Shown here one piece after another: positions 42,916 through 43,500 of a stretch of 64,000 bases of DNA; the first letter of the stretch is position 1; each line of letters starts with the position of its first letter. A model generated the notes under the pieces. The model worked only from the letters and a program-made list of their open reading frames with translations. It was not told where the DNA came from and did no database searches. Both the position numbers and the translations under genes were made by a program. The stretch lies in sequence record PZ256263.1; one strand, written 5' to 3'. The DNA comes from a phage.

Positions 42916-43060
42916 ATGTAGGGTTGACCTGCCTCTTTTAGAAAGTGCTCAAGGAAAAGCACTAGCCACTACGTTGGAGTGGTATCAGGACCAGTACACA
43001 GAATGTGCTGCCAATCACAATGGATTGCTAGAAGCTCTGAAAGAGCGTGGAATAGAATAA
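42800..43060 (+). CDS. Putative o-spanin (Rz1-like lipoprotein), 86 aa, overlapping the i-spanin
   Basis: AAAGAG RBS; signal peptide MRKLNQFFIMSALVMSMSAC with Cys, Pro-containing mature region; starts inside and extends past 42565-42915. Confidence 0.4.
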   Translation: MRKLNQFFIMSALVMSMSACSMSDNSRQSMPLPTNLKAECRVDLPLLESAQGKALATTLEWYQDQYTECAANHNGLLEALKERGIE

Positions 43061-43500
43061 TGGCTATTGTTTTTGAAGGAAAAGCCAATGTATTCACGGT
43101 GGACGTCCAAACAGTAACCTGTACAGTGAACCTAGTTGGTGTAATGGGTGCAGGAGTGGCTGAGGAGTATAAAAGAAGATACCCTGAAGCTTTTGAGAGA
43201 TATAAAGTTGCTTGCAACTCTGGATTCCAGATTGGACAGCTTCTCCTACAGAGGTTAAATGATGGGAGATTGGGGCTGTGTTTTCCAACCAAGAAACATT
43301 GGAGAAATGGGTCTGAGATAGAGTGGATAGAACAGGGTTTACAAAAGCTATTACTTACCTACAAAGATAAGGGAATCACCTCTCTAGCCATAACACCTCT
43401 TGGTTGCGGCAATGGGGGACTAGATTACCAATCTCAGGTAAGACCTATAATGTTTAAATATCTAAATCAGATGGACATACCTGTCTATATCTGTTTATAA
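43060..43500 (+). CDS. Macro domain protein, TARG1/DarG-like (146 aa)
   Basis: [35 protein letters not shown] align by eye with TARG1/OARD1 (CRMGAGIAVLFKK; PRIGCGLDRL). Confidence 0.6.

Follow-up and report, generated by a model that had tools for sequence, protein, structure and literature searches.

What a small macrodomain protein does for a phage that keeps its gene between spanin genes and a sigma factor gene is the question raised by a locus in phage record PZ256263.1. The stretch analysed (the window) comprises 64,000 nt of one strand, read 5' to 3', and the gene in question is an open reading frame (ORF) on the + strand with an ATG at 43060 and a stop codon at 43498–43500. An earlier note on this DNA had described its product as a TARG1/DarG-like macrodomain that could neutralise host defences based on ADP-ribosylation or process ADP-ribose-derived signals. 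The 146-residue frame is reproduced by translation of the window, both motifs quoted at the time are present (17 residues at 26–42 and 13 residues at 111–123), and the gene does lie directly before that of the phage sigma factor, the orthologue of phiEco32 gp36. By analogy with characterised homologues, this stand-alone DarG-type macrodomain probably erases DarT2-type thymidine ADP-ribosylation from the single-stranded DNA (ssDNA) of the phage, which would thereby evade host DarTG2.

Nucleotide similarity identifies the window as that of a Kuravirus, i.e. a phiEco32/SU10-like E. coli podophage of the Gordonclarkvirinae. The 7 kb around the macrodomain (macro) gene is 94–96% identical to Kuravirus phages such as MN03, SU10 and Bas90, and the protein itself is 98.6% identical to phiEco32 gp37. 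The ATG of the gene shares bases with the stop codon, TAA, that ends o-spanin upstream (TAATG). A longer, GTG-initiated frame (42979, 173 residues) was rejected as the start of the gene, because every deposited annotation and every homologue begins at the ATG.

On the evidence of sequence profiles and predicted structure the protein is a DarG-type macrodomain, much nearer to DarG than to TARG1. Residues 22–125 match the Pfam Macro family PF01661 with E=1.3e-10 (41.7 bits, cutoff 22), and the PADLOC DarG profile is matched over positions 6–142 of 329 with E=4.3e-45. The NCBIfam model antitoxin_DarG (NF048014) aligns over positions 6–144 of 338 with E=6.3e-42, the 144 bits lying below the 250-bit cutoff for the full-length protein. 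For the MacroD-type model NF001666 the score was 15.7 bits (E=0.011), where the cutoff is 246. A phmmer search of the PDB returned the DarG of M. tuberculosis (1.6e-27), the DarTG of Thermosipho (2.8e-26) and the DarG of T. aquaticus (4.7e-25), and a match to TARG1 that was marginal (E=0.016). The names "RNase III inhibitor", "phosphatase" and "ADP-ribosyltransferase" found on homologues were set aside as transferred labels; among the closest relatives, phiEco32 gp37 is deposited as "Appr-1-p processing enzyme family" (EU330206) and the Bas90 copy as "phosphatase".

The AlphaFold2 model, built on 77 homologues that also served for the residue-invariance counts given below, comprises six strands and four helices with a predicted local distance difference test score of 95.9 and a predicted template modelling (TM) score of 0.89. 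With this model as the query, Foldseek retrieved 194 PDB matches of macrodomain type at E<=0.001, as befits a three-layer α/β/α macro fold. The four highest-ranking matches are all DarG macrodomains and superimpose with TM scores of 0.91–0.93 and root-mean-square deviations (rmsd) of 1.4–2.5 Å at 34–38% identity, and for the three entries that hold a stand-alone DarG macrodomain the rmsd is 1.4–1.8 Å. The superposition on Thermus DarG gives a TM score of 0.93, and TARG1 follows next after the DarG entries with a TM score of 0.82 and approximately 20% identity. Because the profile, PDB and Foldseek matches all rank DarG first, the protein is best described as DarG-type, with TARG1 as a more distant cousin. 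The comparison of predicted structures that the earlier note had called for therefore shows a model that superposes on both proteins and better on DarG; the TARG1/DarG class that it had named stands, whereas the TARG1-type assignment does not (E-values of 1e-27 versus 0.016, TM scores of 0.93 versus 0.82, identities of 35% versus 20%). Residues near the active site point the same way. Human TARG1 (OARD1) shares the macrodomain subclass with the window protein and its catalytic lysine aligns, but A90, after that lysine, is replaced in the window protein by the Trp of DarG, and D125, the Asp proposed to resolve the lysyl-ADP-ribose intermediate, falls at Gly119 and is without an equivalent here, as it is in DarG.

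In T. aquaticus DarG (TaqDarG), ADP-ribose is contacted by N8, L9, T20, N22, V31, Q34, T79, G117, G119, N120 and G121, K80 is catalytic, and for W83 stacking against the modified thymine has been proposed; the mutations N22A (strongly), K29E, G119E and K80A are damaging, N22 having a role in positioning ADP-ribose and thymidine (PMC5179494). In the alignments N8, T20, N22, V31 and T79 recur unchanged as N10, T22, N24, V33 and T77 of the window protein, and G117, G119, N120 and G121 as G115, G117, N118 and G119. The residues K80, H82 and W83 are identical as K78, H80 and W81 in pairwise and multiple alignments alike, and only two contacts are substituted, L9 by V11 and Q34 by E36. Across the homologues N24, K78, W81, G115 and G119 are invariant, and K78 is also the catalytic lysine position of TARG1. 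A failure of the catalytic residues to align with TARG1 and DarG, which had been named at the outset as the observation that should count against the assignment, was not found, the lysine being aligned in the sequence, profile and structure comparisons.

With its 146 residues the protein stops immediately after the macrodomain, and the C-terminal DarT-binding, ssDNA-mimicking domain of DarG is absent. A profile made from verified DarT neighbours found no DarT-like ORF in the six-frame translation of the window (best E>0.05), and the annotation of the complete Bas90 genome includes no ADP-ribosyltransferase (ART), the profile search having covered the DarT family of ARTs. The possibility that the macrodomain regulates an ART encoded by the phage itself was rejected on these two observations. 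Since it has neither the DarT-binding domain nor a DarT gene in the window, the protein is, as far as its sequence and surroundings tell, an orphan antitoxin enzyme. In the DarTG2 systems of T. aquaticus, M. tuberculosis and enteropathogenic E. coli (EPEC), the DarG2 macrodomain is the best match in sequence and structure, with the catalytic Lys, the Asn, the Trp and the Gly-rich loop kept. DarG2 differs in having a C-terminal domain of about 200 residues that sequesters DarT, and its gene adjoins darT where the window gene adjoins spanins and a sigma factor. The macrodomain alone is enough to neutralise DarT in the case of both T. aquaticus DarG (PMC5179494) and EPEC DarG (PMC7003065). Being encoded by a virus, the window enzyme would serve the attacker and not, as DarG2 does, the self-protection of the host.

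Macrodomain anti-DarTG2 factors have already been published for phages, just as the phiEco32 gene already carries its macro/Appr-1-p label. The window protein is 41% identical over its full length (E=2e-35) to PhiKZ gp104, which was named AdfM in 2026, strips DarT2-made ADP-ribose from DNA and is needed for growth on hosts carrying DarTG2 (PMC13309987). Removal of the DarT2 product and protection from DarTG2 have been demonstrated for the AdfM of PhiKZ and PhiPA3 (PMC13309987) and for T4 Tk.4 (10.1101/2025.11.20.689424). The AdfMs of Asesino (gp217) and Goslar (gp83) are also among the homology matches, and together with PhiKZ gp104 and PhiPA3 gp108 these chimallivirus proteins are, like the window protein, stand-alone DarG2-like macrodomains of about 150 residues without a DarT-binding domain. 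They share with it the N, FPTK..W and GC(G/A)NGG motifs, including an Ala at the position of TaqDarG K29, and the same mechanism, in which DNA is enzymatically freed of the ADP-ribose added by DarT2, is expected of the window protein by analogy. Unlike the chimalliviruses, the window phage, a podovirus of 77 kb, has no phage nucleus, and nuclear import should therefore not be involved; its gene is a presence/absence cassette beside the sigma gene that bears the predicted sigma70 promoter of that gene.

Among coliphages, T4 Tk.4, independently named AdfM and found by a transposon screen on DarTG2 (preprint 10.1101/2025.11.20.689424), is a stand-alone macrodomain of the same functional class that is required for growth on DarTG2-expressing E. 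coli. Its relation to the window protein is remote (BLASTP aligns 32 residues at E=0.002, and hhalign gives a probability of 92%), and the catalytic lysine of TK and the Trp, which the window protein has, are both missing from it; Tk.4 therefore represents an independent macrodomain lineage. AdfN (T4 30.3), an orphan antitoxin against DarTG1, resembles the window gene in being a lone enzymatic domain that erases DNA ADP-ribosylation, but has an unrelated NADAR fold and targets the guanine adducts of DarT1, not thymidine adducts (PMC11825919). A copy 80% identical to the window protein is found in the early small-gene array of the unrelated Chaseviridae phage DE15 and in a 53-kb metagenomic phage contig. 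In a neighbour-joining tree the Kuravirus and Chaseviridae copies pair in 200 of 200 bootstraps and all lie far from TARG1; a phage-only clade including PhiKZ AdfM appears in 39 of 200, with long branches involved, which is compatible with a shared phage origin as well as with separate captures. As a separate observation, one phage-like metagenomic contig (L103) encodes a 56%-identical macrodomain and, about 2 kb away on the other strand, an ART-PolyVal (PF18760) protein (L103:1599-2015 (-) and 4027-4470 (+)); in that lineage the macrodomain might balance a phage-borne ADP-ribosyltransferase.

The cellular relatives tie the protein to DarT as well. In the 80 closest cellular loci (L010–L089, 41–53% identity) a DarT-family gene is adjacent, fused or nearby in 73; at six others no such gene is present although there is sufficient sequence on either side. 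The canonical order DarT then DarG is found in 15 loci, overlapping or fused genes in three and a nearby DarT gene in two. The remaining arrangement, present in 53 of the 80, is inverted, with a macro gene (about 300 residues) followed by a long DarT-like gene (about 320–345 residues). Pfam DarT was confirmed on four representative neighbours, and the macro partners were confirmed with PADLOC DarG. In the inverted operons (e.g. L025:3971-5898 and L047:3986-5859) the C-terminal part of the macro protein, of about 150 residues, is unlike the canonical DarG C-domain, and the gene of the DarT-like protein (320–345 residues) overlaps the macro gene, its product having an N-terminal Pfam DarT match and an extra C-terminal region of about 120 residues. 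No description of this inverted architecture, macro then long DarT-like gene, was found.

Within the related phages the gene is an accessory element. The phages MN05, NJ01, ES17, IMEP8, Bas92 and PE006 lack exactly 463 bp, with flanks that are 92–96% identical; their blastn matches come in two pieces that together span 1164 instead of 1627 bp, and the o-spanin stop is joined straight to the sigma start. Copies of ATGGC, a 5-bp microhomology, bound the cassette: one coincides with the start of the macro gene (43060–43064), the other with the sigma gene's second ATG (43523–43527), and the junction falls within this microhomology. The macro gene is present in about 41 of some 99 records of related phages, and this patchy, mobile distribution is the pattern expected of counter-defence genes. 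Among Kuravirus alleles the ratio of non-synonymous to synonymous substitution rates (dN/dS) is 0.045–0.08, with dS of up to 0.43, which indicates strong purifying selection and hence constraint at the protein level; relative to the DE15 copy the synonymous sites are saturated (proportion of differing sites, pS, 0.86) and the corresponding non-synonymous value, pN, is 0.16. In phage ECBP2, of the sister genus Suseptimavirus, the slot between o-spanin and sigma holds an unrelated 74-residue gene (phrog_30479, function not known; L008:814-1038), and this slot is possibly a small, variable locus of anti-defence type.

In phiEco32 the block is expressed with the middle (replication) class of genes, and gene 40 is preceded by a promoter that depends on gp36 (PMC8948821; PMC4281155). 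The element TAATGTATA occurs in the window five times exactly, against 0.78 expected, and from its sequence and position the copy upstream of the gene-40 orthologue is likely to be the middle-class promoter from which the unit with the macro gene is transcribed. A second predicted promoter, of sigma70 type, has a -10 element that overlaps the macro stop codon, and agrees in place with promoters predicted inside phiEco32 gene 37 (PMC8948821) and in SU10 (PMC4281155). An equivalent sigma70 site was not found directly upstream of sigma in the macro-less MN05 (L007 640-880). The macro-less phages would thus lack this promoter beside the sigma gene, and acquiring or losing the cassette may therefore shift the timing of sigma factor production and of the transcription switch. 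Right after the gene-40 orthologue, and overlapping the start of i-spanin, there is a terminator-like hairpin at 42529–42546 (+), with a stem of 7 bp including five G-C pairs and then a T-run, which is conserved in MN05 and could attenuate transcription into the spanin–macro–sigma block.

The reading that we consider probable, a DarTG2 counter-measure, would operate as follows. A Kuravirus infects an E. coli cell that carries a DarTG2-type system, and freed DarT2 would ADP-ribosylate thymidines in the single-stranded phage DNA and block replication. The macrodomain enzyme, made together with the middle genes, would hold the ADP-ribose in the pocket formed by N24, T77 and G115–G119 with the modified base stacked on W81, and K78 would cleave the bond between base and ribose, restoring unmodified DNA. 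An enzyme that acts in this way on the product, instead of binding the toxin, should be effective against diverse DarT2 enzymes. The activity, the substrate (N3-thymidine-ADP-ribose in ssDNA) and the protective phenotype are those to be expected from the homology to PhiKZ AdfM and DarG together with the DarT linkage of the cellular relatives. Suitable hosts are on record, in that EPEC carries a thymidine-specific DarTG (PMC7003065) and E. coli K-12 expressing DarTG2 restricts coliphages (preprint 10.1101/2025.11.20.689424).

Several observations weigh against this proposal. The position of TaqDarG K29 is occupied by Ala31, although Ala is also present there in the experimentally active PhiKZ AdfM and in the cellular homologue at locus L053, and the family pattern is [KA], so a Lys is not strictly required. 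About half of the Kuraviruses manage without the gene, which moreover belongs to the middle and not the immediate-early class (from PMC8948821 and PMC4281155). A blastn search with a Klebsiella plasmid darTG found no match in 5,426 E. coli genomes, and literature searches turned up no specific paper linking Kuravirus or Gordonclarkvirinae to DarTG or macrodomains. The 53 inverted loci among the nearest cellular relatives represent systems that may modify a different base, and enzymes of the DarG/TARG1 type also cleave uracil-ADP-ribose in RNA in vitro.

The last two points lead to the alternative that the enzyme removes a different nucleic-acid adduct, either uracil-ADP-ribose in RNA or the adduct made by the inverted systems, and counters a defence other than canonical DarTG2. 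With the inverted systems predominating, the cognate modification might indeed differ from the canonical DarT2 thymidine adduct: their DarT-like partners are divergent (Pfam DarT at 5e-20 to 8e-11, apart from the extra C-terminal region), tree distances from the window protein to the inverted relatives are 0.76–0.86 as compared with 1.08 to TaqDarG and 1.14 to PhiKZ AdfM, and both TaqDarG and TARG1, the latter active on thymine- and uracil-linked ADP-ribose, hydrolyse uracil-ADP-ribose on RNA in vitro. Macrodomains of the canonical DarT then DarG order are, however, about equally close (45–51% identity), TaqDarG cleaves the uracil adduct less efficiently than the thymine adduct, the window protein has the thymine-stacking Trp and every catalytic residue of thymidine-specific DarG, and the validated PhiKZ homologue works on DarT2 products (PMC13309987). 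On balance this alternative appears unlikely, and its narrower form, in which the Kuravirus and Chaseviridae macrodomain is tuned to the products of the inverted operons, possibly on another base or nucleic acid, and not to canonical DarTG2, is quite improbable.

The other explanations depart further from the DarT connection. That the protein acts like TARG1 on glutamate, de-ADP-ribosylating host or phage proteins modified during infection, finds a basis in TARG1 being the next-best structural match with the catalytic lysine in common, and in the superfamily often acting on proteins (PMC9503650), but it is very unlikely given the marginal sequence similarity to TARG1, the Gly at the D125 position, the missing phage ART and DarT-like ORF described above, and cellular relatives that are paired with DNA-targeting DarT and not with protein ARTs. 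We give little credence to a housekeeping role without any part in counter-defence, whether in processing ADP-ribose-1''-phosphate or O-acetyl-ADP-ribose or as a YmdB-like regulator of RNase III: the deposited annotations, the PHROG 335 label "phosphatase" and the PDB label "RNase III inhibitor" that suggest it are transferred names, the PDB entry so called being the M. tuberculosis DarG macrodomain itself, and neither the low score with the MacroD-type model nor the accessory, horizontally mobile distribution fits. Of the two functions put forward in the earlier note, reversal of DarT-type DNA ADP-ribosylation gains, by analogy, from the identity to PhiKZ AdfM and from the DarT genes beside the closest cellular relatives, and the processing of ADP-ribose-derived signals gained no specific support. 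The latter idea, that the protein degrades or sequesters immune signals such as the cyclic ADP-ribose isomers of Thoeris, agrees with the prediction that macrodomains act on cyclic ADP-ribose in TIR systems (PMC9503650), but the protein has no similarity to known anti-Thoeris proteins and its DarG-specific base-stacking Trp and DarT-linked relatives point to a base-linked substrate, which makes this reading extremely improbable.

The features of the locus are compiled in Table 1.

Table 1. Coordinates in the window of the macrodomain gene, its functional codons and the associated features.
Feature	Position	Strand	Basis
Orphan DarG-type macrodomain gene, 146 aa, phiEco32 gene 37 orthologue	43060..43500	+	ORF, translation, profile and structure matches
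Presence/absence cassette, 463 bp	43060..43522	+	blastn, MN05 annotation, junction alignment
Codon N24 (= T. aquaticus DarG N22)	43129..43131	+	Alignments; invariant in 77 homologues
Codons K78-K79-H80-W81 of the FPTKKHW motif	43291..43302	+	Alignments; K78 and W81 invariant in 77 homologues
Codons G115-C-G117-N118-G119-G120, predicted ADP-ribose-gripping loop	43402..43419	+	Alignment; G115 and G119 invariant
TAATGTATA, phiEco32 gp36-holoenzyme (middle/late) promoter element	41693..41701	+	Upstream of gene-40 orthologue; consensus from PMC8948821
Predicted near-consensus sigma70-type promoter, TGGACA-18-TATAAT, 11/12	43472..43501	+	Faces sigma gene; in last 30 bp of macro gene
i-spanin gene	42541-42915	+	Annotated in Bas90 and EK5; PHROG Rz-like spanin match for the spanin pair, 2.8e-37
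o-spanin gene, overlapping i-spanin	42887-43060	+	Annotated in Bas90 and EK5; stop overlaps macro start
Phage sigma factor gene, phiEco32 gp36 orthologue	43520..44167	+	Annotations; weak Pfam Sigma70_r2 match

Upstream of the macro gene there are genes for a metallophosphoesterase, the gene-40 orthologue (function not known) and the overlapping i-spanin/o-spanin pair, and downstream of it those for the gp36-like sigma factor, a SLOG/YAcAr-domain protein, a deoxynucleoside monophosphate (dNMP) kinase and a 5'-3' exonuclease. The sigma-factor function of gp36 has been reported for phiEco32 (PMC8948821). The spanin genes (42541–43060) adjoin the sigma gene in the middle cluster, whereas the genes for holin and endolysin of these phages (Bas90_0010 and Bas90_0011) are about 20 kb away, and a stretch of 68 nt in i-spanin (approximately 42799–42866, positions 259–326 of the blastn query 42541–44167) is about 81% identical to Felixounavirus spanin genes. 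The gene at 44164–44556 (+) encodes a SLOG-family YAcAr-domain protein, matching Pfam PF10686 at exactly the cutoff of 28.2 bits; it is annotated as "GTP-binding" or "chromosome segregation protein" and is found in macro-carrying and macro-less phages alike. SLOG domains are predicted binders of nucleotides and ADP-ribose derivatives. The dNMP kinase at 44553–45158 (+) has 201 residues as compared with 297 in phiEco32 gp34, lacking an in-frame segment of about 96 residues just past the N-terminus, and the remainder is 94% identical to gp34.

The concept of a phage macrodomain that counters DarT is itself already known and this locus is a new example of it, with practical value for the choice of phages for cocktails and for the annotation of anti-defence genes, where the misleading "phosphatase/Appr-1-p" annotation would, on confirmation, be replaced. 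Natural near-isogenic pairs are available in the public BASEL collection, Bas90 with the gene and Bas92 without it, and the 463-bp polymorphism amid 92–96% identity therefore makes possible a direct test of what an orphan enzyme contributes to host range on DarTG2 strains such as EPEC. Were the enzyme instead tuned to the products of the inverted operons, it would mark a new ADP-ribosylation defence together with its counter. If removal of DarT2-type ADP-ribosylation is confirmed, macrodomain anti-DarT factors would extend from the jumbo phages and T4 to the Kuraviruses, which are common therapeutic-candidate podophages of E. coli, and to the Chaseviridae.

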